Source of the DNA: Candidatus Microgenomatus sp.
GTDB lineage: Bacteria; Patescibacteriota; Microgenomatia; UBA8517
Direction: 5' to 3'
Length of the DNA: 64,000 nucleotides
Assembly (NCBI GenBank): GCA_020724585.1
Contig: DYGS01000001.1
Coordinates: 219,139 to 283,138 of the forward strand
The translations under genes and the position numbers were made by a program. Below, piece by piece: positions 33,972-64,000 of the stretch (the first letter of the stretch is position 1; the number at the start of each line of letters is the position of its first letter). The notes under the pieces are model-generated. The model was given only the letters and a program-made list of their open reading frames with translations. It had not been told where the DNA came from and did not search any database.

Positions 33972-35093
33972 ATGCAGAGAGTTGTGATTGTTATGCCAGC
34001 TTGGAATGAGGGAGAATCGATAGCAAAAATGGTCGATGTTCTTTTTAATAACGAATTTCCCAAAATCGATGCCGAAATGCACTTGCTGATAGTTGATAAT
34101 CATTCTCAAGATGGGATGACAGAGACAGTTACAAAATTAACTCAAAAATACAAAAATTTAAAAATTATACAGCAGGAAAATAAAGGTCTTGGTTGGGCAT
34201 ATGTTACAGGGATGGAGTACGCGATGAAAAATTTAAAAGCAGATGCTATTTTGGAAATGGATGCCGATTTCCAGCACCCACCAAGATTTGTAAAACCAAT
34301 GGTAGACGCATATTTATCAGGTGCTGAATATGTAATCGGTAGTAGATATGTCAAAGGTGGCTCGATTCCTGGGCAGTGGGAGCTTCTAAGAAAGGCAGTT
34401 TCTTATTTTGGGAATCTTTTTATAAGGGTTGTACTGTTGAAACCTTGGATCCACGATTTAACAACCGGATTTAGACTGGCAAAAGTTAAAGGTGTTCTCG
34501 ATAAAATTGACCTGCGAAATTTAATGGAACTTAATAGGTTTGCTTACAAAGTTGATCTATTATATCAATGCATGAAGTTTTCCAAAAAAACAGTTGAAGT
34601 GCCGCTTCAATTTGAGCCAAGAAAAACTGATAGATCGAAATTTAACCCCAAGGAAATGATATCAACTTTCAAAGTAGCAATAATACTTGGGATAAAAGAT
34701 AAAATTAAGTTTATTAAATTTGCGATAGTTGGAGGAACGGGATTTATTGTCAATTTCATAGCCCTTAGATTATTTAGAAATTTAGGGCTAACTGAAACCC
34801 TGTCTTGGGCTTTTTCTACAGAACTTGCAATTGTTAATAACTACATTTTTAATAACATTTGGACTTTTAAAGATCAAGAAATAAAAGGATTAAAGCAAAC
34901 TTTAGTTAAATTTTTCCAGTTTAACCTAACTTCAGCTGGTGCACTTTTAATTCAGTCTATTGCAGGTCCAATTGGAGTTAGACTTGTTGGTGTTCAATAT
35001 GACGCTTTAGTATTGGCCTTTATAGTACTATTTTTGGTGCTTCCATATAACTTCACAATGTATAACCTAGTAATTTGGAGGAAGAAAAAGTAA
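33972..35093 (+). CDS. GT2 polyprenyl-phosphate glycosyltransferase (Dpm1-like) fused to a GtrA-like membrane domain
   Basis: IVMPAWNEGESI, DNHSQDG, EMDADFQHPP; C-terminal four-TM GtrA-like segment. Confidence 0.8.
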   Translation: MQRVVIVMPAWNEGESIAKMVDVLFNNEFPKIDAEMHLLIVDNHSQDGMTETVTKLTQKYKNLKIIQQENKGLGWAYVTGMEYAMKNLKADAILEMDADFQHPPRFVKPMVDAYLSGAEYVIGSRYVKGGSIPGQWELLRKAVSYFGNLFIRVVLLKPWIHDLTTGFRLAKVKGVLDKIDLRNLMELNRFAYKVDLLYQCMKFSKKTVEVPLQFEPRKTDRSKFNPKEMISTFKVAIILGIKDKIKFIKFAIVGGTGFIVNFIALRLFRNLGLTETLSWAFSTELAIVNNYIFNNIWTFKDQEIKGLKQTLVKFFQFNLTSAGALLIQSIAGPIGVRLVGVQYDALVLAFIVLFLVLPYNFTMYNLVIWRKKK

Positions 35094-35109
35094 GTTTTAA
35101 AATATTTTT

Positions 35110-38492: not shown

Positions 38493-39203
38493 ATGTCTTA
38501 TAAAATAGATGAGCTTTCGGTTTTCTTTCCAACCTATAATGAGGAAAAAAATATAAGAAGAACAGTGTTAAGGGCCAGGGCGGTTTTGACAAAAACAGCC
38601 AAAGTGTGGGAAATGCTTATAGTAAATGACGGTTCAAAGGACAAGACTTTCGAGATAGCCAAAAAATTAAGCCAAGAAGACAAGAGGATAAAATTAATTA
38701 ATCATGAGGTTAATAGAGGTTACGGTGCCGCTTTTAAATCCGGTTTTTATAATGCCAGTTATAGGTGGATTGCATTTACTGATTCTGATGGGCAGTTTGA
38801 TTTTTCTGAAATTGTTAATTTTATAGACAAGCAAAGGGAAACTAATGCAGATTTGGTAATAGGTTATTATAAAAAAAGACAAGTTTCAAAATTTAAGATT
38901 ATAACTTCAAAAATGTGGGAGCTGGCAGTTTTTTTGCTTTTTGGACTTCATGCGCGGGATATTGATTGCGGTTTCAAATTGGTTTCAAAGAAGGTTATTG
39001 AAAATATTCCAAAGTTGGAAAGTGAAAGAGGAGCTTTTATATCAAGTGAATTTTTAATAAAAGCCAAAAAAACAGGATTTAAAATAGTTGAAATTCCAGT
39101 TACGCATTACCCCAGAATTGCAGGTAAAGGCACAGGGAGAGATATTAAAGTAATTATTCAAAGTTTTGTTGATTTATTCAAATTATGGCACAAATTAAAT
39201 TAA
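38493..39203 (+). CDS. GT2 glycosyltransferase (dolichyl/polyprenyl-phosphate sugar synthase-like)
   Basis: LSVFFPTYNEE, VNDGSKDKT, FTDSDGQ. Confidence 0.85.
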   Translation: MSYKIDELSVFFPTYNEEKNIRRTVLRARAVLTKTAKVWEMLIVNDGSKDKTFEIAKKLSQEDKRIKLINHEVNRGYGAAFKSGFYNASYRWIAFTDSDGQFDFSEIVNFIDKQRETNADLVIGYYKKRQVSKFKIITSKMWELAVFLLFGLHARDIDCGFKLVSKKVIENIPKLESERGAFISSEFLIKAKKTGFKIVEIPVTHYPRIAGKGTGRDIKVIIQSFVDLFKLWHKLN

Positions 39204-41723: not shown

Positions 41724-41725
41724 AT

Positions 41726-42742
41726 ATGAATTACCCTGAGTCTCAACTTGTTTTAGATGAAATTAAAAAGGCAAAAAGAATACTTCTAAATTGCCATACT
41801 AATCCTGATGCTGACAGTGTAGCGAGCGCATTTGCTTTAAATGAAGTTCTTAAGGTTCATTTTGAAAAGGATGTTACTATAATTTATCCAGATGGTCTCC
41901 CAGAAAATACAATGTTTATTAAAGATAGTTTGGAGGGAGAAGTTGTTTTAAAGAAAATTGATTTTAATACCTTCAATTTTTCAGAATATGATTTATTCAT
42001 TGCGCTTGATTCGAGTAGTTGGGACAGAGTTAGGGGTGGAGGTAATAATGAAAAAATTGATATAAAAACAATCGTTATAGACCATCATCACACAAACACG
42101 CGTTTTGGTAAAATTAACATCGTAGATGACGCTATGAGTTCTACTGCCGAACTATTATATTTTATATTTAATGACTGGGGTATAAACCCTGATGGCGAAT
42201 TTAATTACTCTTTTTATCAAACTGCATTATTGACTGGGATAATCAATGATACAGAGTGTTTCAGAACTAAGGTAGCTGATAGCAAAACGATGAAAGTTGT
42301 CTCTGACCTCATGAGATATTCTTCAAAAGATTTAATAATTCAGAATCTTTATCAGTCAAATTCTGTTACGACGTTAAAGTCAGTAAGTGATATGCTTGCA
42401 AACATTTCTATGGATGAGTCTAATAATTTTTGCTATACGTATATTAATTATGAAGAATACGTAAAAAATAATTTAGAAAGCTTTGCAAAAGATATGGTGG
42501 CCGACTTCTTTATTAATAGCGTAAACAAAACAGATTTTGGTTTTATTGCCGTTGAAAAGCAAAAGAATGAAATTTCTGTTAGTTTTAGAGCTAGGACAGA
42601 TTTTGATACCTCGGTAATTGCAATGGAATTAGGTGGGGGTGGCCACAAGATTAGATCTGCGGCAACTCTACGAAATATTAAATTTGAGGATGCATTGGAT
42701 AAAATACTAAGTACTTGTAGAAAATATGCTAGCAACAATTAA
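41726..42742 (+). CDS. DHH/DHHA1 phosphoesterase (NrnA-like), tandem paralog
   Basis: NPDADSVASA, VIDHHHTN, GGGGHKIRSAAT. Confidence 0.8.
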   Translation: MNYPESQLVLDEIKKAKRILLNCHTNPDADSVASAFALNEVLKVHFEKDVTIIYPDGLPENTMFIKDSLEGEVVLKKIDFNTFNFSEYDLFIALDSSSWDRVRGGGNNEKIDIKTIVIDHHHTNTRFGKINIVDDAMSSTAELLYFIFNDWGINPDGEFNYSFYQTALLTGIINDTECFRTKVADSKTMKVVSDLMRYSSKDLIIQNLYQSNSVTTLKSVSDMLANISMDESNNFCYTYINYEEYVKNNLESFAKDMVADFFINSVNKTDFGFIAVEKQKNEISVSFRARTDFDTSVIAMELGGGGHKIRSAATLRNIKFEDALDKILSTCRKYASNN

Positions 42743-44183
42743 GCGGTTGTATACACCTTGGAATTTGTTGATTTTAATTATTCTTCTAGTTGCTTTTGTC
42801 CTTCGTACTTATAGAATTTCTGAACTTTTGGGATTTTGGTACGACCAAGGGAGGGACGCTTTAGTTATTTGGGACCTTATTCACAATGGAAAGATGTTTT
42901 TGATAGGACCAATGATGGGTAATACGGGTATTTTTAGAGGTCCTTGGTATTATTATATGCTTGCTCCGTTTTACTATATTGGGGAAGGAAATCCCGTAAT
43001 TCCAGCTGTTTTTCTGGTTTTTCTTTCTGTAGTTGGTTTATATGTTTTATATAAGATAGCCGTTGAATTAGATGGAATAAAGCTGGCAGTTTTGTCAGTT
43101 ACTATTGCTTCGGTTTCATCTTATATAATCGGGGCATCAAGATGGCTTTCAAATCCTACCCCGACTCTATTAACCGGAGTCTTGTTTATTTATTTTATGT
43201 ATAGATTTTTGGAGAAAAAGAAATGGGCATTGCCCTTGGCTGTTTTTACAATTGGCATGGGATTAAACTTCGGTGCGGCAACGGAAGTTTATTTGGTACC
43301 TGCTCTTTTATTTATTCTTTATATTTTTAGAAAGAAATTAACATTTGATTGGAAAATTATTTCATTTTCCATTGGTTTGTTTGTTTTTTCATTTTTACCG
43401 CAGATTTTATTTGAAGTAAGACATGGCGGAGTTATGTCAAAAGCCTTTTATGATTTTGTAATAAACAAAAATTCATTTACATATAAGTTTTGGGAAATAC
43501 TGCCGCATAGAATGTTGGAATTTTATAATTTATTTTACTCAAAGTTTTGGGTAGATGGCGCACTTACATTTTTACCATTTTTTATAATATTTATTTTTTA
43601 TTTAGTTATTAATTTAAAGAGATATTGGGTTGACGATAAATTTAAGATATTGTTTATCGTATTTTTGTCTCCGTTTTTAGGAACTCTGTTTTTCGTGAGC
43701 AATCTTGGCGGATTTTATGATTATTATTTTACTGCATTTTATTTTATTTTTATATTATTTTTTTCATTTGTTTTACTGAAGACCAACAAAATATTTGTTT
43801 GCTTATTTTTATTAATCCTTATTTTTAAAAACACCTCAAATTATATGGAGAACTATTCTGTTGATATAAATAAATCTGATTTAATTTCGCTTAAAAGTCA
43901 AATTAGCGCAATTGAGTGGATCAGAAAAGATAGTGAAGGCAGTCAATTTAATGTAGATGTTTATGTTCCGCCTGTTGTCCCATATGCCTATGAATATCTG
44001 TTTTTATGGAGGAATTTAAGACAAAGCGAAAATCAAACAAGCCTGCTTTATACTTTAGTAGAAGCAGATCTCAATCACCCCGCTAGAATTGAGGCTTGGC
44101 TTAAAAGACAGGAAAAAATCGGCAACATTATATATGAACAAAGATTTGGGGGCATAACCGTACAAAGAAGAGAAAGAATATGA
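42726..44183 (+). CDS. GT39/ArnT-like membrane glycosyltransferase (DxGRD motif)
   Basis: LGFWYDQGRDALVIWDL; multi-TM. Confidence 0.75.
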   Translation: MLATIKRLYTPWNLLILIILLVAFVLRTYRISELLGFWYDQGRDALVIWDLIHNGKMFLIGPMMGNTGIFRGPWYYYMLAPFYYIGEGNPVIPAVFLVFLSVVGLYVLYKIAVELDGIKLAVLSVTIASVSSYIIGASRWLSNPTPTLLTGVLFIYFMYRFLEKKKWALPLAVFTIGMGLNFGAATEVYLVPALLFILYIFRKKLTFDWKIISFSIGLFVFSFLPQILFEVRHGGVMSKAFYDFVINKNSFTYKFWEILPHRMLEFYNLFYSKFWVDGALTFLPFFIIFIFYLVINLKRYWVDDKFKILFIVFLSPFLGTLFFVSNLGGFYDYYFTAFYFIFILFFSFVLLKTNKIFVCLFLLILIFKNTSNYMENYSVDINKSDLISLKSQISAIEWIRKDSEGSQFNVDVYVPPVVPYAYEYLFLWRNLRQSENQTSLLYTLVEADLNHPARIEAWLKRQEKIGNIIYEQRFGGITVQRRERI

Positions 44184-47355: not shown

Positions 47356-48111
47356 ATGGCTAAAAATATATATCTCTCGGTTGTTATTCCTGCATATAAC
47401 GAGGAGATAAACTTAAAAAGAGGAGTTCTTGACTCGGTTTTTAACTATCTGATAGCTAAGAAATTTATCTGGGAAGTAATAATTTCAAATGATTGTTCCA
47501 ATGATAAAACAAAGGAAATCGCGGAGGAATTTGTCAAAAAACACAAAGGTTTTAGACTTATAAACCAACCTGTTAATTTGGGCAAGGGCGGGAATGTCAT
47601 AGCAGGAATAAAAGAGGCAAGGGGAGAACATATCTTGTTTGCTGATATGGATCAATCAACCCCTATAAATCAGTTTGAATTGTTTATACCAAAATTTAAT
47701 GAAGGTTTTGATGTAGTTATTGGTTCAAGAAGTGGAAGACCTGGGCAGTCAATAATTAGAAAATTAATGGCCTATGGGTTTGTATTTTTGAGAACCATAA
47801 TTTTACGCCTTCCTTATAAAGATACACAATGCGGTTTTAAGGCTTTTACAAAAGAAGCTGCTAATAAAATATTTGAGAGAATGAAAATTTTTGGTCAAAA
47901 ACCAAGGTCGGGCAGGGGGTCAGTTACTGCTGGTTTTGATCTTGAAATGCTTTATATAGCGAGAAAATTGAAGCTTAAAGTTGCAGAGGTTCCTGTTGAG
48001 TGGTATGAATACGGACAGAGAAAGGAAGTCAACCCAATCAAGGATTCATGGGAGGGTTTGGTTGATCTTCTCAAAATTCGACTTAATGCAATTTTAGGAA
48101 GGTACAAATAA
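47356..48111 (+). CDS. GT2 glycosyltransferase (polyprenyl-phosphate sugar synthase-like)
   Basis: LSVVIPAYNEE, FADMDQS, VIGSR. Confidence 0.85.
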   Translation: MAKNIYLSVVIPAYNEEINLKRGVLDSVFNYLIAKKFIWEVIISNDCSNDKTKEIAEEFVKKHKGFRLINQPVNLGKGGNVIAGIKEARGEHILFADMDQSTPINQFELFIPKFNEGFDVVIGSRSGRPGQSIIRKLMAYGFVFLRTIILRLPYKDTQCGFKAFTKEAANKIFERMKIFGQKPRSGRGSVTAGFDLEMLYIARKLKLKVAEVPVEWYEYGQRKEVNPIKDSWEGLVDLLKIRLNAILGRYK

Positions 48112-51108: not shown

Positions 51109-52750
51109 TAAATTAGCTGCGTTTCTGATTATTCTTGGATCGATATCGTGGTCGTCTACGATGATTAAAAGCGGCTTCAAATATGAATATGGCTATGGTT
51201 TTTGGGGTGCAAACGGCTATGACGGCGTTTGGCATATAGCTTTAATTAATAATTTGGCAAGATTCAATTTTGAAAATCCGGTTCTTTCCGGAGAATTGAT
51301 TAAAAATTATCACATAGGTTTTGATTTATTCATAGCTATTTTGCATCTAATAACATCAATTCCGGTGAAAACAATTTACTTTCAGCTATTTCCTCCATTT
51401 GCATCGATTATTTTAGGGTTTTTAACTTATCACTTTGTTTATAATTGGACTAAAAGTATAAAATCATCACTTTTTGCGCTATTTTTTATCTATTTTGGAG
51501 GTTCAGCGGCTTGGATTCTCAATTTAGGTGAGTCGGCTTTTTGGTCTCAACAATCAATTTCAACACTGATTAATCCGCCTTTTGCACTTTCTTTGATTTT
51601 TATATTGCTCGGACTTATCTTCATGCAAAAGGGGAAAATTCTTCTTGCGATTTTATCTTTTGGAGTCCTGATCCAGATAAAGGCTTATGCAGCGATTCTA
51701 GTTTTAGGGGGTTTGTTTGTTTCTATTTTTTATTCTTACATCTTACATCATACATCTTATATCTTAAAAATTTTCTTAGGCTCCCTTATTCTTAATCTTT
51801 TACTGTTTTTTTTAGTTAAAAATGATGGACTATCAACTTTTGTCTGGCAGCCATTCTGGTTTTTGGAGACAATGTTTGCTGCGAGCGATCGACTTCCCTG
51901 GCCAAAGATGGCTGAAGCTATGCTTTCTTATAAAAATCAGTCCGTGATTACAAAATTTATATTATCTTATGGTTTGGCTTTTGCAATTTTTATTTTTGGC
52001 AATTTTTGGACACGACTTCTTTTAGTAAAAGATTTATTTAAAAAAATTGATCTTTACAAAATATTTATGTTAAGCATTGTTCTTGCTGGAACCATTGTTC
52101 CCACTTTTTTTGTTCAAACAGGCACGCCATGGAACACTATACAATTTATGTATTATTCTCTATTTTTTGCAGGGATTTTGGCAGGAATTTCTGTTTCCCA
52201 ATTAGTAACATATCGCAAATCAATAATGTTAATTGTTGTTTTATTAACAATTCCTACTTCGTTTTTTAGTTTAATAAATAATTATCTTACAAAGATTCCA
52301 CCCGCAATTGTTTCCAACCAAGAACTGGTTGCACTGGATTTTTTAAATATGCAGGAAGACGGGGTTGTTTTGACATATCCCTTTGATACGGCTTATAACC
52401 CAAAGCAGATTCCGAATAAGATACCTCTTTTTAAATATTCAAACACATCATATGTCCCAGCTTTTAGTAGAAAAAATATCTACTTTGAAAGAACAAATGT
52501 TGAAATTATGGGATACAATTGGGAAGAAAGGAGAAAAAAAGCTCTTGATTTTTTTATAACTACAGATATTGATAAGGCTGGAGAATTCTTAAATAAAAAT
52601 AAGATTAAATACTTATATTTAGTGAAGGAAATGTCTCCTCTTTATGGCGAGCTTTTTAAAGTCGATTCTTCAAAATTAGGGTTAGTAAAGATTTTTGAGA
52701 ATGAAGTAAGTATAATATATAAATATGACAAAAATTTCGGCGGTAGTTAA
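51065..52750 (+). CDS. polytopic membrane protein, possible polymerase/GT-C-type
   Basis: 561 aa, more than 10 TM, large C-terminal soluble domain; no named motif. Confidence 0.5.
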   Translation: MKMLKKVLSKCLINNKLAAFLIILGSISWSSTMIKSGFKYEYGYGFWGANGYDGVWHIALINNLARFNFENPVLSGELIKNYHIGFDLFIAILHLITSIPVKTIYFQLFPPFASIILGFLTYHFVYNWTKSIKSSLFALFFIYFGGSAAWILNLGESAFWSQQSISTLINPPFALSLIFILLGLIFMQKGKILLAILSFGVLIQIKAYAAILVLGGLFVSIFYSYILHHTSYILKIFLGSLILNLLLFFLVKNDGLSTFVWQPFWFLETMFAASDRLPWPKMAEAMLSYKNQSVITKFILSYGLAFAIFIFGNFWTRLLLVKDLFKKIDLYKIFMLSIVLAGTIVPTFFVQTGTPWNTIQFMYYSLFFAGILAGISVSQLVTYRKSIMLIVVLLTIPTSFFSLINNYLTKIPPAIVSNQELVALDFLNMQEDGVVLTYPFDTAYNPKQIPNKIPLFKYSNTSYVPAFSRKNIYFERTNVEIMGYNWEERRKKALDFFITTDIDKAGEFLNKNKIKYLYLVKEMSPLYGELFKVDSSKLGLVKIFENEVSIIYKYDKNFGGS

Positions 52751-53633
52751 TACCCTAAATGAGGAGAAAAAAATTGAAAGGTGTTTATCTTCTCTGAAAG
52801 GTTTTGCTCATGAGATTGTTGTTGTTGATATGATGTCAACGGATAAAACACGCGAAATTGCCAAAAGATTTGGTGCGAAGATTTATAAACACAAAAGATT
52901 GGGCTATGTTGAGCCGGCTAGAAATTTTGCAATTGAGAAGGCTAAATATGATTGGGTTTTTGTGATTGATGCTGATGAAGAAATTAAGAACGATTTAAAA
53001 ACCTACATTAAAAAAGAATTAAAAGATCCAAGGGCCTCTTTTTATAGAATACCCAGAAAAAATATGATCTTTGGCAAATGGATGAAGCATTCCGGCTGGT
53101 GGCCTGATTATAACATCAGACTTTTTAAGAAAGGAAGCGTTTCTTGGAATGAAGTTATTCATTCGGTTCCAATGACGCTTGGGCGGGGATTTGATATACC
53201 TTCCTTAGAGAATTTGGCGATTGTTCACAGACACTATCAATCTATTGAAGAATATCTTCTTAGGATGAACAGGTATACGACAATACAGGCGCGAGACCTA
53301 AACAAAAAAGGCATTGAGTTTAAGTGGAGAATGCTTTTAACAAAGCCGTTGTCCGAGTTTTTACGGAGGTATTTTGCTGAGGATGGTTATAAAGACGGTT
53401 TGCACGGACTTTCTTTAAGTGTTTTGCAGGCTTTTTCAGAGGCAATTCTTTATCTTAAGCTTTGGCAAAAACAAAGATTTTACAAGAAAAAGATTCCGCT
53501 GGGTTTGGTTTTGAAAGAAAAGCAGAAAATTGATAGAGAGATAAAATGGTGGTTTTTAACAAGCAGCCTCAGTGAAAGGAAGCCAATTGTGGAGAGAATA
53601 TGGCTAAGAATACAAAGAAAGTTTCTATCATAG
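52725..53633 (+). CDS. GT2 glycosyltransferase (WaaE/KdtX-like)
   Basis: ISAVVNTLNEE, VIDADEE, WWPDYNIRLF. Confidence 0.8.
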   Translation: MTKISAVVNTLNEEKKIERCLSSLKGFAHEIVVVDMMSTDKTREIAKRFGAKIYKHKRLGYVEPARNFAIEKAKYDWVFVIDADEEIKNDLKTYIKKELKDPRASFYRIPRKNMIFGKWMKHSGWWPDYNIRLFKKGSVSWNEVIHSVPMTLGRGFDIPSLENLAIVHRHYQSIEEYLLRMNRYTTIQARDLNKKGIEFKWRMLLTKPLSEFLRRYFAEDGYKDGLHGLSLSVLQAFSEAILYLKLWQKQRFYKKKIPLGLVLKEKQKIDREIKWWFLTSSLSERKPIVERIWLRIQRKFLS

Positions 53634-54529
53634 TTTTAAGCATTAATTCATATGAAATGCTTAAAAGTTTTGTTGATAATTTAAAAGAACTTGATTTTAA
53701 TGGATTAAGAGTTGATCTTAAAATTATTAACAACGGCAGCAGTGACAAGCGTTATCTTAATTTTAAAAATCTTAAACTTCCCAAAATTGCAATTCATTAT
53801 TTTGATAACGATAAAAATCTGGGATTTGCCGCGGGTAATAATATTGGCATCAAAAAATCACAGGATTCTGATTATCTTTTTTTTGTTAATGATGATGTCT
53901 TTTTATCTAAAAACACTTTAAAAAATTTACTTAACTTTTTGGAAGAAAATAAAAATTGTGGTTTAGTTTCGCCAAAAATTTATTTTGCCAAAGGGTATGA
54001 GTTTCATAAGGATAGATATAAAAAGAATGACTTAGGAAAAGTAATTTGGTATGCGGGTGGAGAAATTGATTGGAAAAATATTCATACAGATCATCTAGGA
54101 GTTGATGTTGTTGATAGGGGTCAATTTGAAAAAATTCAAGAAACAGAACTTATAAGCGGGGCTTGTTTTTTAGCAAGAAATGAAGTTTTTAAAAAACTTG
54201 CAGGTTTTGAAGAAAAATATTTTTTATATTGGGAAGATGCTGACTTGAGTATAAGAGCTAGAATGGCAGGGTTTGGTGTTTATTTTAATCCCAAAGCTCA
54301 TTGTTGGCACAAAGTATCGGTGTCGGCAGGTGGTTCTGGAAGCCTTTCAAATGATTATTTTTTGATTCGAAACAGATATTTTTTTGCAATGAGATATGCC
54401 TCGTTTAGGACAAAATTGGCAGTTTTCAAAGATACTTTAAGACTAATGTTTTTTGGAAGGCCTTGGCAAAAAATTGGGGCAAGAGATGCATTATTTGGTA
54501 TCATGGGGAGGGGGTCATGGCTAGGGTGA
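53600..54529 (+). CDS. GT2 glycosyltransferase (rhamnosyl/galactosyltransferase-like)
   Basis: VSIIVLSINS, FVNDDV, YWEDADLSIRA. Confidence 0.8.
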   Translation: MAKNTKKVSIIVLSINSYEMLKSFVDNLKELDFNGLRVDLKIINNGSSDKRYLNFKNLKLPKIAIHYFDNDKNLGFAAGNNIGIKKSQDSDYLFFVNDDVFLSKNTLKNLLNFLEENKNCGLVSPKIYFAKGYEFHKDRYKKNDLGKVIWYAGGEIDWKNIHTDHLGVDVVDRGQFEKIQETELISGACFLARNEVFKKLAGFEEKYFLYWEDADLSIRARMAGFGVYFNPKAHCWHKVSVSAGGSGSLSNDYFLIRNRYFFAMRYASFRTKLAVFKDTLRLMFFGRPWQKIGARDALFGIMGRGSWLG

Positions 54530-55239
54530 AAATTTCTGCAGTAATTATATATGCGAGCGATTGTGATAAAAAGCTTTTTAGTTTGGCCAAAAAATCAGTT
54601 GTGTGGTGTGATGAACTAGTTTTGATTAATGGCAAGAAAGGTAGTTTTAATGATTGGCGAAATGAAGGTTTAAAAAAAGCCAAAGGTGATTGGGTATTAT
54701 ACCTAGATAGTGATGAAGAAATTACAAAAGATTTAGAAAAAGAAATAGCTGAGACCATAAATACAGCAAATCAGAGATTTAATTATTTTGCTATTCCAAG
54801 GAGAAACAGAATTTTTGGAAAAGAATTTAAATATTCTGGCCAATATCCAGATTATCAAAAAAGACTATTTAAACGAATTGCAATAAAAAGATGGACAGGT
54901 GAGGTTCATGAAGAACCAGAGGTAGAAGGTAAAATGGGACACCTTAAAAATCCAATACTGCACCATAAAAACATGACCATATCTCAAATGGTTGAAAAAA
55001 CAAACAAATGGAGTGAAATAGAAGCCAAATTAATGTTTGAGGCAAATCATCCGCCTATGAATTTTTTAAGGTTTATGTCGGCAGGTTTTCGTGAATTGTG
55101 GTTGAGATTTGTTAAGCAAAGAGCATTTCTTGATGGAAAAGAAGGAATCATATATGGAATTTATCAAATTTATAGTAAACTAATCAGCTATTCAAAATTG
55201 TGGGAAATGCAAATAAAAAGTAGATCCAAAATCATTTGA
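54517..55239 (+). CDS. GT2 glycosyltransferase (paralog of 52725-53633)
   Basis: ISAVIIYASD, LDSDEE, QYPDYQKRLF; ATG at 54517 preferred over the track's upstream start. Confidence 0.7.
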   Translation: MARVKISAVIIYASDCDKKLFSLAKKSVVWCDELVLINGKKGSFNDWRNEGLKKAKGDWVLYLDSDEEITKDLEKEIAETINTANQRFNYFAIPRRNRIFGKEFKYSGQYPDYQKRLFKRIAIKRWTGEVHEEPEVEGKMGHLKNPILHHKNMTISQMVEKTNKWSEIEAKLMFEANHPPMNFLRFMSAGFRELWLRFVKQRAFLDGKEGIIYGIYQIYSKLISYSKLWEMQIKSRSKII

Positions 55240-59551: not shown

Positions 59552-61248
59552 AGACGATATATAACTATTTAAATAATATTGTCATTTTGATTATTCTAAT
59601 CATTTTGTTTACAGCCCCCACATATTTGGGTTTATTCCGTGATGGATATTTTTTTATGCAGGATGACCTGCAGGCTTTTAGAGTCCAGCAGATGGATAAA
59701 TGCTTTAATGATTTTCAAATTCCTTGTCGATGGATACCTGATGGCGGTTATGGTTATGGTTATCCTCAGTTTAATTATTACCCTCCATTTCCGTATTATT
59801 TAGGAGTTTTATTTGCGAAACTTGGCATGCAATACATAGATTCGGTGAAACTTCTTTTTATTCTCGGATATGTCCTATCTGCAATTTCCTTTTTTATTTT
59901 GGTGAAAGAACTTTTGGGGAAATTTCCTGCATTTATTTCAGCTCTTTTATATACATATATTCCATACAAAGCGGTTGAAGTTTATGTTCGAGGTGCCTTG
60001 AGTGAATTTTGGGCTCAGATATTTTTTCCGCTAATTTTACTTTTTATATATAAGTTAATTAAAACAAGAGAAGGTAAATTTATTTTATATCTTGGAGTTT
60101 CAATAGCTCTATTGGCAACAACGCATACATTAATGACGATTATTTTTGCTCCGTTTGCAATTTTTTGGGCAGTTTATTGGTTGCTGGAATCTAAATTTAC
60201 AAAAGACGATCTTTTAAATTTATTGTATAGCGGCTTTTTGGCTTTTGGTCTCTCTGCCTACTTTATGCTTCCGGTGGCTTTTGAAAGAAGTTTAGTTCAT
60301 ATTGAATCAATGCTTTCGGGGTATTTTGACTACAGAGCACACTTTGTATCACTTTACAAATTGCTTTTATCAACAGAATGGGGATACGGTTCATCAGGTT
60401 TTCCCGATGAAAAACTTAATTTGTCTATTGGCATAATTCAGTGGATTGTCGGTCTTGGAGCAATTATCTTAGCCTTTTTTAATCGGAAAAAATATAAAAG
60501 CGAGGCTGTTTTAACATTTTTAATTTTTATTTTTGCATTATTAACTTTGTTTATGATGCATTTAAAATCCAGCTTTATCTGGTCATTATTACCCTTTTTG
60601 TGGTATATGCAATTTCCTTGGAGGTTCTTGGCACTGTCAATATTTTTAATTTGTCTGCTTTCTGCATATTTTTTAAATTTTATTTCAGGGAACAAAAGGT
60701 ATGTAATTGGAATAATTATTGTTATTATTGCGTTTTTAACGACTAGAAATTATTTTGTACCGAAAGAATGGTATTACGGCATTACCGACAGGGATAAATT
60801 TAGCGGCAAATCATGGCAAAAACAGATGACAATTAGTATTTTTGATTATCTTCCCAAAACTGCGGTGCTCCCTCCAATAAATGAAGCGCCAGATTTACCC
60901 GAAGTTCTTGAGGGAGTTGTTAATTTTGCTTCTTATGAAAAAGGTAGTAATTTCCAGAAGGGTAAAATAGTTGTAGAGAAAGATGCGACTATTAGGCTTC
61001 CTATTATTGATTTTGCTGGGATGAAACTTTATGTTAATGGAAAAGAGTATGACTATATAAACAATGATTGCCGTGGACAGGAATTCTGTTATGGTCTTGT
61101 GACTTTTAGACTTCCAAGAGGAGAACATGATATTTTAGTGAAGCTGGGAGATACGCCGGTTAGAAAAATTGGTAATATTATCTCGTTATTGTCATTATTT
61201 ATCTTATTTACATATGTTTACAAATTTTTTTCAAAGGATAAGAAATAA
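59515..61248 (+). CDS. QFPWRF-type polytopic membrane protein, putative GT-C glycosyltransferase (paralog 1)
   Basis: QDDLQAFRV...IPCRW...WGYGSSG...MQFPWRFLALSIF; about 12 TM plus a C-terminal beta domain. Confidence 0.6.
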   Translation: MAKIHVWVKENLKTIYNYLNNIVILIILIILFTAPTYLGLFRDGYFFMQDDLQAFRVQQMDKCFNDFQIPCRWIPDGGYGYGYPQFNYYPPFPYYLGVLFAKLGMQYIDSVKLLFILGYVLSAISFFILVKELLGKFPAFISALLYTYIPYKAVEVYVRGALSEFWAQIFFPLILLFIYKLIKTREGKFILYLGVSIALLATTHTLMTIIFAPFAIFWAVYWLLESKFTKDDLLNLLYSGFLAFGLSAYFMLPVAFERSLVHIESMLSGYFDYRAHFVSLYKLLLSTEWGYGSSGFPDEKLNLSIGIIQWIVGLGAIILAFFNRKKYKSEAVLTFLIFIFALLTLFMMHLKSSFIWSLLPFLWYMQFPWRFLALSIFLICLLSAYFLNFISGNKRYVIGIIIVIIAFLTTRNYFVPKEWYYGITDRDKFSGKSWQKQMTISIFDYLPKTAVLPPINEAPDLPEVLEGVVNFASYEKGSNFQKGKIVVEKDATIRLPIIDFAGMKLYVNGKEYDYINNDCRGQEFCYGLVTFRLPRGEHDILVKLGDTPVRKIGNIISLLSLFILFTYVYKFFSKDKK

Positions 61249-62875
61249 TTTACATATCGTTATTTTTACAATGATGATATTGTTTGTATCTTTGCCGTTA
61301 TTTAAGTATGGTTATTTTTCTCATCAAGATGATTTGCATATTATAAGACTTTATGAAATGAGGCAGTGTATAGAATCCATGCAAATTCCTTGTAGATGGG
61401 TTTCGAATATGGGTTATGGCAATGGTTTCCCAATGTTTAATTATTATGCACCATCGATTTATTATCTGGGGGTTATCTTAACATATATAGTTGGATATAT
61501 AAACACTGCTAAGGTTATATTTTTCTTAAGCCTTAGTCTTGGAAGTTTTGGCATTTACTTATTTGTAAAACATGTTTTTGATAAACAAAGTGCCTTTATC
61601 TCTAGTGTTTTATATTTACTTGCGCCCTATAAAGCACTTGATATTTATGTGAGAGGCGCGCTATCTGAAGCATTTTCGTTGGCTATTATTCCCTTTGTTT
61701 TTTACTTTCTAACTAAAATAATTGATGGACCTATTAAAAAGAAAGACTTTTTACTTTTTACTTTATCTTTATTTTTATTTCTAATAACCCATAACATAAT
61801 GATTTTGGTTTTCGCCCCAGTTCTTTTAGTTTGGGCGCTTTTAAGACTTTATTTAAATAATTTCTCTAATTTAAAATTAGTTATTCTTGGAGGATTTATT
61901 TCATTTTTGCTTTCATCATTCTTTTTATTACCTGCATATTTTGAGAAAGATTTGATTCAAACAGATAGTTTGACAAGATTTGAACTTGATTTTAGAGCTA
62001 ATTTTGTTTCCCTTTACAAGATATTTATAGATAGAAGCTGGGGATATGGCACTTCAATTCCTGGTCCATTGGGCGGGATGTCATTTCAAGTTGGTATTTT
62101 CCATTGGATTTTATCTTTTATATCGATACTAATTCTATTTAAAAAGAATGTTTCAAAAGGTTTAAAAATGATAGTATCTTTATTTGTTATCTTTTTTGTG
62201 ACCTCTGTCTTTATGATGCATGTTAGATCTTCATTTGTTTGGGAAAGTATAAAGATTTTATCTTATTTCCAATTCCCATGGAGATTTTTATCACTTTCGA
62301 TATTCACATCATCTGTCCTTGGCGGTTTAGTTTTATATTTAGTTAAAGATAAATACAAAAATATTTTGATAATAGCTATAACTCTTTTAACCTTTATCTT
62401 AAATTATTCATATTTTAAGCCTCTAGAACAAATTAAAATAAATGACGAACAAAAATTGTCTGGCCAAAGTTATGAAATACAAATTAAAGGGTCGCTTTTA
62501 GATTATTTGCCCAAGACCGCGCTTGAGCCAAGAGAAAAAGCACTTAGTATGCCTTTGATTACAAGAGGCAGCGCGATTATTGAATCTTTTGAAAAGAAAT
62601 CAGATAAATTTAATGGCAGTATAAATGTTTTAGAAGATCAAACTGTTTTAGAATTTCCGATATTCTATTTTCCTAATTGGCAAGTTTTTGTTAATGGAAA
62701 GAAAAGCGATATAAGCTATGATAATTATATTGGTCGAATTGCAATTAGACTTGACAAAGGGGAGTATCAAATAGCTGGCAAGTTAAAAAATACTCCTATC
62801 AGAACTGTTTCAAACACACTCACAGCAGTAGGTTTTTTTTCGCTGTTGATAGTTATTAAAAAATGGAAAAAATAA
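61214..62875 (+). CDS. QFPWRF-type polytopic membrane protein (paralog 2)
   Basis: HQDDLHIIRL...IPCRW...WGYGTSIPGP...FQFPWRFLSLSIF. The track start at 61169 is TTG; ATG at 61214 is preferred by N-terminal length match to the paralogs. Confidence 0.6.
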   Translation: MFTNFFQRIRNNLHIVIFTMMILFVSLPLFKYGYFSHQDDLHIIRLYEMRQCIESMQIPCRWVSNMGYGNGFPMFNYYAPSIYYLGVILTYIVGYINTAKVIFFLSLSLGSFGIYLFVKHVFDKQSAFISSVLYLLAPYKALDIYVRGALSEAFSLAIIPFVFYFLTKIIDGPIKKKDFLLFTLSLFLFLITHNIMILVFAPVLLVWALLRLYLNNFSNLKLVILGGFISFLLSSFFLLPAYFEKDLIQTDSLTRFELDFRANFVSLYKIFIDRSWGYGTSIPGPLGGMSFQVGIFHWILSFISILILFKKNVSKGLKMIVSLFVIFFVTSVFMMHVRSSFVWESIKILSYFQFPWRFLSLSIFTSSVLGGLVLYLVKDKYKNILIIAITLLTFILNYSYFKPLEQIKINDEQKLSGQSYEIQIKGSLLDYLPKTALEPREKALSMPLITRGSAIIESFEKKSDKFNGSINVLEDQTVLEFPIFYFPNWQVFVNGKKSDISYDNYIGRIAIRLDKGEYQIAGKLKNTPIRTVSNTLTAVGFFSLLIVIKKWKK

Positions 62876-64000
62876 ACATTTTTTTTAAAAAATACATAAT
62901 TTTTTTGGTTATTTTATTTTCTATTCCAGCCGTTAGGTACTTTTTTGTTCCTGGTTTTTTTGGAGTTTCAGATGATTTGCATGTTGCTTGGCTGCATCAG
63001 ATGGTCAAAACGCTAGAGATGCTGCAAATTCCACCCCGATTTGTTCCAAACTTAAGTTTTAATTTTGGCTATCCGCTTTTTAATTTCGTCTACCCACTGC
63101 CCTTTTATATCGCAAGTATTTTTAGTTTTCTCGGATTTAGTTTAGTTGATAGCATTAAACTTGTTTTCGGTCTTTCCATACCTTTTTCAATCTATGCAAT
63201 GTATTTACTTCTTAATAGATTTGTTAATTCTTATCTATCATTATTGGGAGGACTAATTTATGTTTATGCCCCGTATAGGGCTTTGGAAATATTTGTTAGG
63301 GGAACAATTGGGGAAATTGTTGCTTTTGCCATTTTTCCTCTAATTATATTAACAACTCTAAAGATATTTGATAATCCAAAAGATAATAAAAACACAGCCT
63401 TTAATGGTTTGTTTATTGGTCTTCTGATACTATCCCACAACATCATGTCTTATATGTTTGCCCCATTTTTGATAGTTTTGATACTAATAAAACTTTTTGA
63501 AAATAAGTCTAAAGAATTAAAAAGTTATATTCTTTCAATTTTTAAATTTTTTATATTAGGTCTATCCTTATCATCTTATTTTTGGCTGCCGGCAATTGTT
63601 GAAAGCAAGCTAATGAAGTATGACACTGTTTTTAATTTTTATGACCATTATCCGACGCTTAAACAGTTTATAACACCTTATTGGGGCTATGGAGCCTCAG
63701 TTCCCGGGCCATATGACACCATGTCATTTTATTTGGGTTTTTTTCAAATTGCACTATTTTTAGTATCTACAGTTTATTTTCTTCTAAAGTTTAAAAAAAT
63801 AGATAGGGAAGTTAAAACCGTCTTCCTATGGTCATTAACTGTCGTCTTTATGTCAATCTTCATGATGAATCATAGATCAAGTTTTTTGTGGGAAAACCTA
63901 CCTCTTATTGGTTATTTCCAATTTCCATGGAGATTTATTGCTATGCTTGTCTTGTTTATACCACTTTTAATAGTCTTATTTAAAAATTTGTCTATCAAAA
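62863..64000 (+). CDS. QFPWRF-type polytopic membrane protein (paralog 3), 3' end outside window
   Basis: Hand translation from ATG at 62863 is open to the window end: SDDLHVAWL...IPPRF...WGYGASVPGP...FQFPWRFIAML. The start overlaps the previous stop (ATGGAAAAAATAA). It is absent from the ORF track because no stop falls inside the window. Confidence 0.55.
   Translation, partial: MEKINIFFKKYIIFLVILFSIPAVRYFFVPGFFGVSDDLHVAWLHQMVKTLEMLQIPPRFVPNLSFNFGYPLFNFVYPLPFYIASIFSFLGFSLVDSIKLVFGLSIPFSIYAMYLLLNRFVNSYLSLLGGLIYVYAPYRALEIFVRGTIGEIVAFAIFPLIILTTLKIFDNPKDNKNTAFNGLFIGLLILSHNIMSYMFAPFLIVLILIKLFENKSKELKSYILSIFKFFILGLSLSSYFWLPAIVESKLMKYDTVFNFYDHYPTLKQFITPYWGYGASVPGPYDTMSFYLGFFQIALFLVSTVYFLLKFKKIDREVKTVFLWSLTVVFMSIFMMNHRSSFLWENLPLIGYFQFPWRFIAMLVLFIPLLIVLFKNLSIK

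Follow-up and report, generated by a model that had tools for sequence, protein, structure and literature searches.

A dense, conserved cluster of membrane glycosyltransferases in Microgenomates as a candidate envelope-glycan pathway

What would a tiny-genome, uncultured bacterium of the Microgenomates (CPR/Patescibacteria) build with a cluster of about 40 kb that encodes some 15 membrane GT-C modules, and on which acceptor? An earlier note on the 64,000-nucleotide stretch analysed here (the window) called the region from 33972 on a glycosylation island, and saw in it the coupling of a donor synthase to an extracytoplasmic transferase, as in protein O-mannosylation. The explanation that we favour, with moderate confidence, is that the locus would be an 'envelope-glycan factory' acting at the inner and the outer face of the cytoplasmic membrane and vertically inherited in the Microgenomates.

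Gene content and conservation of the locus

The claim that almost every gene is glycan-related stands for 20 of the 25 open reading frames between 33972 and 64000 (by Pfam, NCBIfam or fold; genes are named by position, Table 1) and fails for five without an evident glycan role, namely 35110, the NUDIX gene 36393, the DHH pair 40716/41726 and the Bro-N gene 55271. From 38493 on, every gene is on the + strand and either overlaps the next or is separated from it by no more than 36 bp. We count eight GT2 genes (33972, 38493, 47356, 52725, 53600, 54463, 57810 and 58703) where about nine had been given, three of them polyprenyl-phosphate-sugar synthases of Dpm1/ArnC/GtrB type, and Pfam matches bear out the flippase, GT4, SAM methyltransferase and GtrA fusion named before. 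The window also holds ten GT-C modules in nine genes, including two proteins that the first tally had missed (51065 and, on the minus strand, 37334), neither of which has a Pfam match. Past position 64000 the cluster runs on for about 9.6 kb with five further GT-C genes (two GT87, one paralog of 51065 and two PMT_2-like).

In the proposed synteny comparison, about 76 species-level genomes from the Microgenomates (Woese-, Blackburn- and Amesbacteria) repeat the gene order, which puts the clustering far from chance. The CAP-rmlABCD-trmD-DPMS stretch is likewise conserved across Microgenomates as part of the locus, which in relatives also includes additional YfhO, GT87 and PMT_2 genes. No marked composition shift was seen across the locus; the word island misleads, for this is a core locus that Microgenomates inherit vertically, not a mobile one. 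Directly 5' of the cluster, rmlABCD (assigned by precomputed Pfam on the source contig) is its nucleotide-sugar supply, and stands in the same order in L093, a 57%-identical relative and the one whose upstream side was checked, over 10 kb, as far as the CAP-domain gene. A DHH gene is kept between the two DxxRD GT-C genes ('GTC_DRD1 DHH GTC_DRD2') in L009, L092, L093 and many of L010-L089. The Bro-N gene is an interloper in the cluster, and its homologs lie elsewhere within relatives' clusters (e.g. L012, L013, L017, L018, L022).

Table 1. Features of the cluster and its upstream side, in window positions
Position	Strand	Feature	Evidence
29917..33273	+	rmlA, rmlB, rmlC, rmlD (dTDP-L-rhamnose synthesis)	Pfam NTP_transferase, Epimerase/GDP_Man_Dehyd, dTDP_sugar_isom, RmlD_sub_bind
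33972..35093	+	DPMS-type polyprenyl-phosphate hexose synthase, GT2 with C-terminal 4-TM GtrA/DPMS_TM domain	Glycos_transf_2 81 bits, GtrA_DPMS_TM 61 bits
37334..38470	-	Polytopic membrane protein, 378 aa	Invariant D50 (NFDGPLY) after TM1
38493..39203	+	Soluble Dpm1/ArnC/GtrB-like GT2, no TM segment	Pfam GT2 110.9 bits
39185..40714	+	GT-C (PMT_2/PMT), D-x-x-R-D family	Pfam PMT_2 62.7 bits, PMT 41 bits
40716..42742	+	Two DHH/DHHA1 phosphoesterase paralogs	Pfam; embedded in cluster
42726..44183	+	GT-C (PMT_2), D-x-x-R-D family, DQGRD	Pfam PMT_2 41.2 bits
44180..47353	+	1057-aa fusion of two GT-C modules	PTPS_related 28.7 bits (residues 70-411), PMT_2 29.8 bits (629-783)
47356..48111	+	Second soluble Dpm1/GtrB-like GT2	Pfam GT2 104 bits
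48111..49634	+	GT-C (PMT_2/PMT), D40-E41 first-loop motif	Pfam PMT_2 39.6 bits, PMT 38.1 bits
49648..51108	+	Wzx-type MOP flippase	Pfam Polysacc_synt_3 187 bits
51065..52750	+	GT-C, 561 aa, STT3/AglB/PglB-like membrane domain and C-terminal globular domain	Predicted fold; no Pfam/NCBIfam match
52725..55239	+	Three cytoplasmic GT2s (52725, 53600, 54463)	Pfam GT2 76, 57, 32.5 bits
55271..56083	+	Bro-N domain protein, phage-associated DNA-binding type	Pfam Bro-N 57 bits
56120-57166	+	GT4 glycosyltransferase	Pfam Glycos_transf_1 89 bits
57163-57813	+	SAM-dependent methyltransferase	Pfam Methyltransf_11 87 bits
57810..59551	+	Two cytoplasmic GT2s (57810, 58703)	Pfam GT2 88, 94 bits
59515-61248	+	PTPS_related (PF10131) GT-C, QFPWRF	First of three tandem paralogs
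61169-62875	+	PTPS_related (PF10131) GT-C, QFPWRF	Second of three tandem paralogs
62863-64000	+	PTPS_related (PF10131) GT-C, QFPWRF	Third tandem paralog, cut by window edge; full length 558 aa

Donor synthases and their GT-C partners

The several Dpm1-type GT2s of the earlier note are three by their matches in the PDB. The 33972 protein (gene caller start 33993) aligns over its full length with the dolichol-P-mannose synthase of Pyrococcus furiosus, 5mlz (E=1.6e-37, residues 3-354 vs 24-364); 38493 is closest to ArnC (E=5.5e-17), GtrB (6.8e-16) and DPMS (1.6e-11), and 47356 to GtrB (E=4.6e-16) and DPMS (1.7e-12), with a D97-x-D99 conserved in 44 orthologs. As had been described, the latter two genes lie directly 5' of a GT-C gene and overlap it, by 19 bp at 38493/39185 and stop over start at 47356/48111; they are the predicted polyprenyl-P-sugar synthase partners of 39185 and 48111, respectively.

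Of 62 polyprenyl-P-sugar synthase genes in related genomes, 44 have a GT-C gene directly behind them, and in relatives the counterparts of 38493 and its PMT_2 partner also occur as one fused polypeptide (P0312, P0317, P0320, P0340). The acidic residues straight after TM1, whose inspection had been recommended, are invariant or near-invariant throughout the GT-C families (D49/D53, D40-E41, D39-D40, D51, D50). Because of the fusions, the adjacent pairs and these first-loop residues, we regard the proposed coupling of donor synthase and extracytoplasmic GT-C as well supported. The statement that no such system is biochemically described for this kind of organism agrees with the literature searched, in which we found no account of CPR GT-C systems. 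For Firmicutes, Actinobacteria and Archaea, however, systems of this type are well documented (PMC8035078, PMC12041528). The locus is an unusually dense, uncharacterised variant of a known system type. Against equivalog-level HMMs (ArnT, PgfS and similar families) all proteins score far below the cutoffs, 48111 for instance reaching 16.8 bits against an ArnT cutoff of 567.

Proposed pathway and its acceptor

The results above show enzyme classes, folds, catalytic-type residues, gene fusions and conserved synteny, whereas the sugars, step order and acceptor of the pathway that follows are inferred. RmlABCD would supply dTDP-rhamnose at the cytoplasmic face, where the GT2s 33972, 38493 and 47356 would charge polyprenyl phosphate with single sugars, and the five ordinary GT2s, the GT4 and the methyltransferase would build an oligosaccharide, probably rhamnose-containing and methylated, on a lipid carrier. 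Among these GT2s, 52725, 53600 and 54463 have weak similarity only, to the SunS, AglJ and rhamnosyltransferase families, and 57810 and 58703 are weakly similar to the MftF and rhamnosyltransferase families. The Wzx flippase would carry the lipid-linked glycan over the membrane to the outer face, where the adjacent STT3/AglB-like GT-C 51065 would transfer or polymerise it, and about a dozen further GT-Cs (D-x-x-R-D PMT_2, DE-type PMT_2 and PTPS_related, with GT87 and other PMT_2 just beyond the window) would extend and decorate the product with polyprenyl-P-sugars as donors. Against this pathway, neither the window nor the clusters of the sampled relatives showed a priming phosphoglycosyltransferase (WecA/MraY-like or WbaP-like), Wzy, WaaL, an LCP ligase or an ABC exporter, so that the first and the last step of the oligosaccharide branch are not accounted for.

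To O-mannosylate one adhesin with a single sugar would take far fewer than the roughly 15 diverse GT-C modules present, and for this reason we favour a complex surface glycan that is assembled mostly outside the cell. Candidates are a glycopolymer anchored in wall or membrane and long glycans carried by surface proteins; sequence alone does not decide between protein and glycopolymer as acceptor, nor does it give sugar identity and linkage. The logic would be comparable to that of mycobacterial lipomannan/arabinogalactan assembly and of the archaeal Agl pathways.

Protein glycosylation is the alternative that fares best, though we think it unlikely. The GT-Cs would then use GT2-made polyprenyl-P-sugars to glycosylate exported proteins, the sortase-anchored adhesin among them, on the model of the streptococcal GtrB/PgtC2 and Pgf systems or of actinobacterial Ppm1/Pmt. 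A direct precedent exists in S. mutans, where the pgf genes (GT-A PgfS and GT-C PgfM1/M2, YfhO family) adjoin LPXTG adhesin genes and Pgf glycosylates Ser/Thr-rich regions of these adhesins (PMC12041528). The neighbours named before are indeed present here: besides rmlABCD, there are a sortase (Pfam, 85.9 bits) and a 1537-aa SpaA/SdrD_B adhesin with an LPATG signal (23159-27772), which lie directly upstream together with a CAP-domain protein. The adhesin had been called Thr/Pro-rich, but its Ser/Thr/Pro-rich segment (up to 62% Ser/Thr/Pro, densest at about residues 27-110) is confined to the N-terminal part; an exported protein at 20527 has a stretch with 70% Ser/Thr/Pro. Linkers of this kind are, however, common in surface proteins, glycosylated or not. 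Among the NCBIfam models, PgfS ranks first or second for the three synthase-type GT2s, though with scores far below its cutoff, and 39185 and 48111 exceed the Pfam PMT gathering score, yet PMT_4TMC and MIR domains were absent from the Pfam search of the cluster. Known protein O-hexosylation systems have one or two GT-Cs, and the GT-C modules here, with five cytoplasmic GT2s, a GT4 and a methyltransferase, go far beyond them.

The flippase and the 51065 family

In its predicted structure the 51065 protein (gene caller start 51071) clearly has a GT-C fold. STT3A/B, AglB or PglB make up 11 of its top 14 Foldseek matches, and the likeness to oligosaccharyltransferases is found in the membrane domain and in the C-terminal domain. 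The family, with invariant D51, W54, H55, N79-Y80-H81, D85 and E154, is a new, previously unannotated GT-C family that resembles oligosaccharyltransferases. Wzx lies directly 5' of the 51065 homolog in 66 of 76 genomes (at most three genes away in 74), GT2a follows directly 3' in 57, and the pair persists where the GT2/GT4 block, kept in relatives as 'GT2a GT2b GT2c GT4', has moved (e.g. L055, L065, L074). Against NCBIfam, Wzx 49648 scores 114 bits as MOP flippase, 100 as O-glycosylation Wzx and 82 as TuaB, all below cutoffs. Since an STT3/AglB-like protein directly follows Wzx in those 66 genomes, the arrangement suggests that 51065 may transfer a flipped lipid-linked oligosaccharide en bloc.

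This invites a second alternative, to which we give slightly less credit than to protein glycosylation from polyprenyl-P-sugars: the Wzx-51065-GT2/GT4/methyltransferase block would be the bacterial counterpart of Agl in archaea or of Pgl in Campylobacter. Here 51065 would be a true oligosaccharyltransferase that moves a preassembled oligosaccharide from the lipid carrier onto proteins such as S-layer, pilin or adhesin, and other GT-Cs would add the last sugars on the outer side, in the manner of AglS in Haloferax. Besides the structural matches and the near-invariant adjacency to Wzx, the GT2/GT4/methyltransferase neighbours mirror the content of agl and pgl clusters, and the curated family nearest to the DxxRD GT-Cs is archaeal Agl23 (TIGR03663; 39185 scores 49 bits, below cutoff). 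However, the WWDYG motif that defines STT3/AglB/PglB is missing in 46 of 46 members of the family, 51065 has no Pfam STT3 match and no PDB sequence match even by profile, and STT3 also ranks first for the PTPS_related model. The missing WWDYG motif also counts against the envelope-glycan explanation that we prefer, as does the possibility that Wzx flips polyprenyl-P-monosaccharides, as proposed for GacK (PMC8035078); 51065 would then be just another monosaccharide transferase.

It is improbable that this is a streptococcal- or lactococcal-type locus for a rhamnose-rich cell-wall polysaccharide. In such a system a polyrhamnose backbone would be synthesised in the cytoplasm, exported and joined to peptidoglycan, before GacI/K/L-like three-component modules attach its side chains. 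Although rmlABCD adjoins the cluster, three GT2s are weakly similar to a rhamnosyltransferase (TIGR01556) and the GT-A / GT-C / Wzx order at 47356-48111-49648 recalls GacI/GacL/GacK (PMC8035078), the window and conserved cluster have no ABC exporter (RgpC/D-like), priming GT (GacO/WecA-like) or LCP catalytic domain, the GT-C count is far above that of Rgp, Gac and Cwps loci, and similarity to Rgp or Gac enzymes does not reach equivalog level.

Membrane glycosyltransferase families

Four enzymes with a DxGRD loop had been reported; a six-frame scan finds the strict motif in two proteins and D-x-x-R-D in three, 39185 (DEGRD, in the first loop after TM1), 42726 (DQGRD) and the C-terminal half of 44180 (DQERD). 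These are paralogs (42726 vs 39185, 28% identity, E=2.6e-32), with the catalytic-type residues D49, R52 and D53 invariant in 39 family members, and 39185 has more than 3800 homologs, labelled GT39 or ArnT-like in Patescibacteria. The further ArnT-like gene without DxGRD is 48111, which is PMT_2/PMT-positive and carries D40 and E41 instead, each at least 95% conserved in 56 orthologs. The four QFPWRF-type proteins are indeed four PTPS_related paralogs, one of which, the N-terminal half of 44180, reads QFSWR.

The 37334 protein is probably a small GT-C. It scores 34.9 bits, below cutoff, against the NCBIfam 'cell surface glycopolymer formation protein', and its family (656 representatives; invariant D50, Y62 and R323) aligns with the DxxRD family in hhalign at E=1.4e-4 and probability 52%. 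Weak PMT_2 matches occur in 6 of 55 family members, the L092 ortholog has one as well, and single members match GT87, Mannosyl_trans4 or EpsG.

Each half of 44180 has paralogs, and no fused relative was found in GTDB species genomes. In relatives, its position is taken by a separate gene of about 491 aa (weak PMT_2 match in L092, no Pfam match in L009). The gene contains an in-frame 112-nt structured repeat (46716-46827). In two Logan assemblies the contig stops within the gene before its reading frame closes (854 and 399 aa), and a JGI contig reads it at the full 1057 aa.

Gene content and genomic setting

The gene map was built from an ORF listing together with Pfam and NCBIfam scans (see table; genes are named by their start positions). 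It bears out in substance the earlier note's description of a glycan-related region with GT2 enzymes, GT-C transferases, a flippase, a GT4 and a methyltransferase, with 8 GT2 genes counted in place of about nine. From 38493 onward, all genes lie on the plus strand, and neighbours either overlap or are at most 36 bp apart. Housekeeping and envelope genes take up the first 30 kb of the window; among them are Lon, GreA, LysRS, SerRS, SecA, Tgt, a release factor and FtsEX, a sortase, an LPATG adhesin of 1537 aa and a protein with a CAP domain. The GC content is ~33%, homologs of the window proteins carry the names Woesebacteria, Microgenomates or Patescibacteria, and the glycan region sits within the core genome of a small-genome CPR bacterium.

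Genes of the glycan locus and its upstream border, named by family match or size
Feature	Position	Strand	Remark
rmlABCD	29917-33273
trmD	33266-33934	-	lies between rmlD and 33972 (DPMS-like); 8-bp overlap with rmlD
GT2 + GtrA/DPMS_TM	33972
Unassigned gene	35110
NUDIX	36393
378-aa membrane protein	37334	-
GT2	38493	+
PMT_2/PMT	39185	+
DHH/DHHA1 (two genes)	40716, 41726	+	together 40716-42742
PMT_2	42726	+
1057-aa fusion, PTPS_related + PMT_2	44180	+
GT2	47356	+
PMT_2/PMT	48111	+
Wzx (Polysacc_synt_3)	49648	+
561-aa membrane protein, no family match	51065	+
GT2 (three genes)	52725, 53600, 54463	+
Bro-N	55271	+	55271-56083
GT4	56120	+
SAM methyltransferase	57163	+
GT2 (two genes)	57810, 58703	+
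PTPS_related (three genes)	59515, 61169, 62863	+	last one cut by window edge

Past the window edge, the contig completes the third PTPS_related gene and goes on with two GT87 genes and a gene of 189 aa. Next comes a minus-strand gene for a 613-aa protein paralogous to 51065 (31.5% identity, E=1e-67), followed by a PMT_2-type pair of 549 and 547 aa and then an HD gene. This brings the total to ~15 GT-C modules within ~40 kb, or perhaps 5% of a genome whose size we estimate at roughly 0.65-0.9 Mb. A conserved locus of such length in a small genome implies that selection for a complex surface glycan is strong.

The trmD gene is a housekeeping gene on the opposite strand, and L093, a relative with 57% identity, has it in the same arrangement. 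Two LytR_C-only proteins without the LCP catalytic domain (12139-12762 and 13881-14552) flank tgt. The Bro-N gene, of a phage-associated DNA-binding family, lies between the third GT2 of the downstream triplet and the GT4; its homologs occupy differing positions within the same cluster in several relatives' loci (L012, L013, L017, L018, L022), which suggests a mobile or regulatory gene landing repeatedly in the glycan locus. The DHH/DHHA1 phosphoesterase paralogs are found between GT-C genes, and a DHH gene is kept at that position in many Microgenomates clusters, which hints that they are no chance neighbours but have a pathway-linked role, e.g. in the turnover of nucleotides or pyrophosphate.

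Donor synthases and their coupling to GT-C genes

The product of 33972 aligned over its full length, membrane domain included, with the dolichol-phosphate mannose synthase (DPMS) of Pyrococcus furiosus (5mlz, E=1.6e-37). The 'GtrA fusion' of the earlier note does carry a GtrA-like domain, and because of this alignment we regard it as the normal architecture for that enzyme type, with nothing unusual about it. Neither 38493 nor 47356 has a membrane segment; their best matches are ArnC, GtrB and DPMS (E ~1e-16 to 1e-17), and the DxD motif is kept in 47356 orthologs (D97, D99). Judged by sequence, these three proteins are candidate polyprenyl-phosphate monosaccharide synthases. The remaining five GT2s showed generic similarity only, with weak matches to rhamnosyltransferase, MftF and SunS families, and are treated here as presumptive ordinary cytoplasmic transferases. 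As for flippases, a Wzx/MOP protein is encoded at 49648 (Polysacc_synt_3, 187 bits), while a GtrA-like 4-TM domain occurs only as the C-terminal part of 33972.

The logic of a donor synthase working with a GT-C transferase, as the earlier note had proposed, is upheld by three independent observations: the genes overlap at 38493/39185 and at 47356/48111; in four relatives of 39185 (P0312, P0317, P0320 and P0340) a GT2 and a PMT_2 GT-C with the D-x-x-R-D loop motif form a single polypeptide of 715-730 aa; and a GT-C gene directly follows the synthase gene in 44 of 62 cases across 80 related genomes. Such natural GT2-PMT_2 fusions represent Rosetta-stone evidence and, at the same time, provide single-polypeptide constructs for biochemistry.

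PMT_2, PTPS_related and other GT-C proteins

PMT, PMT_2 and PTPS_related are members of the Pfam GT-C clan (PMC7801869). The PMT profile (PF02366) matched 39185 with 41 bits and 48111 with 38 bits, against a gathering score of 22.7; PMT_4TMC and MIR had no match in any scanned protein at E up to 0.01. The loop motif, written DxGRD by the earlier note and ascribed to four proteins, takes the form DEGRD, DQGRD or DQERD in only three paralogous proteins, and its D49, R52 and D53 are invariant among 39 family members. It is a variant of the acidic DE motif of loop 1, which is seen as D40-E41 in orthologs of 48111, a separate PMT_2/PMT protein (conservation of 95% or more among 56 orthologs). The four proteins that the earlier note had described as QFPWRF-type are indeed paralogs (motif QF[PS]WR, 27-37% identity), one of them forming the N-terminal half of the 44180 fusion.

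Searches of PDB sequences, with single sequences or profiles, returned nothing for 39185, 48111 and family profiles A3 and A4, and profile A5 gave only a marginal AglB match (E=0.028). Because sequence searches of solved structures were nearly blank, fold comparison was needed, and two families were modelled. In the model of the PTPS_related protein 61169 (pLDDT 84.8, pTM 0.88), the top 19 structural matches are all GT-C-fold proteins; H37, D39 and D40, directly past TM1, are nearly invariant in its family, and its PTPS_related (PF10131) match lies above the gathering score. The earlier note had made its reading depend on GT-C folds and acidic loops, and both are present, the former in the models of 61169 and of 51065 (below), the latter in the conserved loop residues.

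The family of the 378-aa protein encoded by 37334 on the minus strand has 656 representatives and an invariant D50. The links of this protein to PMT_2 are weak (6 of 55 members match, hhalign E=1.4e-4, and one ortholog has a weak PMT_2 match of its own), and it is probably a GT-C protein.

A Wzx-linked GT-C family resembling oligosaccharyltransferases

The protein encoded by 51065 was modelled with a pLDDT of 87.3 and a pTM of 0.90. Foldseek, an independent method, placed STT3A/B, AglB or PglB in 11 of the 14 top matches and DPY19 in the other 3, with AftA, ALG12 and Pmt4 far weaker. In its membrane domain the protein has the GT-C_A fold of STT3/AglB/PglB (GT66), its C-terminal globular domain is like that of AglB, and its invariant residues (D51, W54, H55, N79-Y80-H81, D85 and E154) are clustered in the first loops. 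It lies beside a Wzx-type flippase, GT2s and a GT4, and a methyltransferase, in the way that aglB accompanies aglR/J/G/I/E/P or pglB accompanies pglK/A/H/I/J. The family counts more than 1100 members and occurs in at least 284 GTDB species.

In contrast to the known oligosaccharyltransferases (OSTs), 51065 has no match in Pfam (STT3, PF02516) or NCBIfam, and its profile found nothing among PDB sequences, solved OSTs included, at E up to 5. The WWD of WWDYG occurs in 0 of 46 family members, which instead have motifs of their own (G-x-D-G-x-W-H, N-Y-H-x-G-x-D, G-E-S-x-F-W and N-P-P). We therefore reject a canonical N-oligosaccharyltransferase, as WWDYG is absent from all 46. Tentatively, and with more doubt than conviction, we can picture the family as oligosaccharyltransferases or glycan ligases of a new class, with STT3/AglB-like architecture and an acceptor-recognition motif unlike WWDYG, which would receive the product of the neighbouring Wzx and move a preassembled rhamnose-containing oligosaccharide en bloc to surface proteins or another envelope acceptor, with about a dozen further GT-Cs finishing the glycan outside the cell, so that CPR bacteria would have a general Agl/Pgl-like pathway evolved or retained independently of the WWDYG enzymes. 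Were this so, the known range of oligosaccharyltransferases would be wider and the enzyme could serve glycoengineering; if 51065 is not an en bloc transferase, the locus would still represent a well-documented known mechanism in an unstudied lineage.

Conservation of the locus

With the family alignment of 51065 as the query, GTDB species genomes yielded relatives in 284 stretches, and the best 80 of these 284 loci belong to Microgenomates throughout. ORFs were called in the relatives' loci and labelled by phmmer with the window proteins. The comparison of synteny, which the earlier note had called for, showed that Wzx directly precedes the 51065 homolog in 66 of 76 loci and lies no more than three genes away in 74, and that the first GT2 of the downstream triplet directly follows the homolog in 57 of the 76. 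The recurrent order is Wzx, 51065, three GT2s, GT4, methyltransferase and two GT2s; where the glycosyltransferase block is relocated (e.g. L055, L065, L074), Wzx and 51065 remain together. Extra ORFs in the relatives' clusters are again GT-Cs (YfhO of ~790 aa, PMT_2 and GT87), besides a methyltransferase and an aminotransferase. In L093 the order is CAP, rmlABCD, trmD(-), DPMS, a 376-aa gene(-), GT2, PMT_2, DHH, PMT_2 and GT2.

A horizontally acquired island is contradicted by this Microgenomates-wide synteny, which includes the flanking CAP-rmlABCD-trmD genes, and also by a GC content merely slightly below that of the rest of the window (0.30-0.35 vs 0.31-0.39). The region is a vertically inherited core locus, and the word 'island', used for it earlier, is a misnomer in the mobile sense.

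Many of the relatives' records, which are species-representative MAGs in GTDB (L011, L012, L016, L017 and many others among L010-L089) bear the title 'uncultured Gammaproteobacteria bacterium' (TPA assemblies). These titles are evidently placeholders or mislabels, as the genomes so named have the same synteny, 45-65% identical proteins and the Microgenomates-specific cluster.

Comparison with known systems

Three-component transmembrane glycosylation is known in Gram-positive bacteria from CsbB/GtcA/YfhO, GtlA/GtlB, CsdAB/CD/EF with CflA, and GacI/J/K/L (PMC8035078). The present locus resembles these systems in having GT-A (GT2) enzymes predicted to make a polyprenyl-P-sugar and polytopic GT-C-fold transferases with an acidic motif in an extracytoplasmic loop, which would transfer the sugar outside. 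A Wzx-type flippase is encoded as well and may act like the GtrA or Wzx flippases of those systems. The GT-A gene is genetically linked and adjacent to that of its GT-C partner, and another shared trait is the Pfam assignment of the GT-C, often PMT_2, YfhO or 'none' in those systems. The synthases 38493 and 47356 recall the variant 'cytoplasmic GT-A plus separate membrane protein'. However, the known systems consist of 1-3 dispersed pairs, whereas here ~15 GT-C modules and 3 synthases occupy one conserved locus, GtrA does not occur as a separate protein, the GT-Cs are of other families (D-x-x-R-D PMT_2, PTPS_related and that of 51065), and the organism is a CPR bacterium without a described teichoic acid or wall-polysaccharide acceptor.

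The Pgf (PgfS, PgfM1/M2), GtrB/PgtC2 (PMC12041528) and actinobacterial Ppm1/Pmt (GT39) systems share with this locus a lipid-P-sugar donor and a GT-C acting outside the membrane, glycosylation genes located by sortase-anchored Ser/Thr-rich adhesins, and PMT and PMT_2 domains. In contrast, the PgfS equivalog is not reached here (65-78 bits vs a cutoff of 500), and the window has PTPS_related instead of a YfhO-domain protein, no PMT_4TMC and far more enzymes. Mycobacterial and corynebacterial assembly (Ppm1, PimE/MptA/MptB of GT87, Emb/Aft GT-Cs and Pmt) likewise relies on many different GT-Cs, which take their sugars from polyprenyl-P-sugar donors and assemble a complex envelope glycan on the outer side of the membrane; GT87 genes also occur in the present cluster, just past the window, and a Dpm1-like synthase can be fused to a membrane protein in both. 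The locus differs in being one contiguous cluster, with no arabinose (DPA) genes, no mycolate context and no orthology at equivalog level.

Orthology to ArnT, PgfS, AglJ and similar enzymes was rejected, all scores being far below curated cutoffs; for ArnT (GT83), the NCBIfam equivalog (cutoff 567 bits) scored 16.8 bits, with 48111 only, and no PDB ArnT was matched. Family membership holds for GT2, DPMS-type, PMT_2, PF10131, GT87, GT4 and MOP flippase. It does not extend to ArnT, PgfS, canonical PMT (PMT_4TMC being absent) or STT3 (neither WWDYG nor a profile match).

Proposed pathway and acceptor

From the enzyme classes and folds, the conservation of catalytic-type residues, the fusions and the synteny, we infer a pathway in which three polyprenyl-P-sugars would be made at the inner face of the membrane, and five GT2s, the GT4 and the methyltransferase would assemble a lipid-linked oligosaccharide with rhamnose supplied by RmlABCD. 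Wzx would flip this oligosaccharide, 51065 would transfer or polymerise it, and the other GT-Cs would lengthen and decorate the product on the cell's outside with lipid-P-sugars as donors, the system being combined with an Agl/Pgl-like or Wzx-dependent branch. The general mechanism is well supported, although Wzx might instead flip monosaccharide carriers, as proposed for GacK. Of a Wzx/Wzy-dependent pathway the locus has the Wzx, but Pfam revealed no priming phosphoglycosyltransferase, Wzy or WaaL-type ligase among 55 scanned ORFs of the window and the sampled extra ORFs of relatives; genes of these kinds may lie in other parts of the genome. Of a rhamnose locus of the Rgp/Gac/Cwps kind it has rmlABCD, but neither a GacO-type primer, nor an ABC2-type exporter (RgpCD), nor an LCP catalytic domain was found in the cluster or among the relatives' unassigned ORFs, only the two LytR_C-only proteins at 12139 and 13881.

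Protein O-glycosylation, one of the functions suggested by the earlier note, has a close precedent in the pgf genes of S. mutans, where adjoining LPXTG adhesins are glycosylated in Ser/Thr-rich regions, and in other streptococci GtrB/PgtC2 glycosylates Ser/Thr-rich disordered regions (PMC12041528). In the adhesin of the window (23159-27772), Ser/Thr/Pro make up as much as 62% of an N-terminal stretch, which fits this precedent, but the three donors, the ~15 GT-C modules and the assembly line in the cytoplasm argue for a complex glycan, and we consider protein-only O-glycosylation to be unlikely. The carrier of the complex glycan that we favour may be protein, peptidoglycan or lipid.

Exported or membrane proteins encoded near the adhesin (27765-29630 and 20527-21423) are possible glycosylation substrates. 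Among the adhesin's neighbours are a 297-aa protein with weak Ig/fn3 matches and a C-terminal TM segment, and a protein that has a CAP (SCP/PR-1) domain and, at its C-terminus, a membrane region; the 298-aa protein at 20527 has a stretch with 70% Ser/Thr/Pro.

CPR bacteria, or Patescibacteria, are ultrasmall and mostly uncultured. To our knowledge their surface chemistry is essentially unknown, though it is central to their biology, since cultivated members live attached to host cells. Our literature search on GT-C or protein-glycosylation systems in CPR/Patescibacteria found nothing specific. The components of the locus are familiar, and the novelty lies in an unusually dense, lineage-wide supercluster centred on an unannotated, Wzx-tied, OST-like GT-C family; less obvious than the components are how large the locus is, that a minimal genome conserves it, and that it includes this Wzx-linked family. 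Testable entry points are the three candidate lipid-sugar synthases, the natural GT2-GT-C fusions and the OST-like family itself.

The fusion gene and its structured repeat

The gene at 44180-47353 is a single 1057-aa ORF that joins a PTPS_related GT-C module to a PMT_2 GT-C module with the D-x-x-R-D motif. In two other loci (L009, L092), a separate gene of ~491 aa is found between the second D-x-x-R-D gene and the second synthase. Our search of GTDB species genomes found no fused relative of the 1057-aa protein, which makes the fusion specific to the source lineage. The full ORF is present in JGI contig Ga0246236_1000003 (metagenome 3300029893), and in two Logan assemblies the contigs end inside 44180 with the frame still open.

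A 112-nt repeat lies within this gene (window 46716-46827) and again in locus L004 (18729-18840), within a 549-aa GT-C gene that lies ~18 kb past the end of the window. A search of 89 loci showed no other copy, scans of metagenome and viral contigs gave nothing beyond two 19-nt chance matches, and Rfam had no credible match. The two copies are 97% identical, in frame in both genes, GC-richer than their surroundings, and both encode ...KKTTGDKPVDELNADMSSSFRRIPRQYGGEDVI... in the protein. The predicted RNA forms two strong hairpins (-49.5 kcal/mol; z=-7.07 vs shuffles on the plus strand and z=-5.2 on the minus strand), and we liken the repeat to the Rickettsia palindromic elements, which insert in frame into coding genes.
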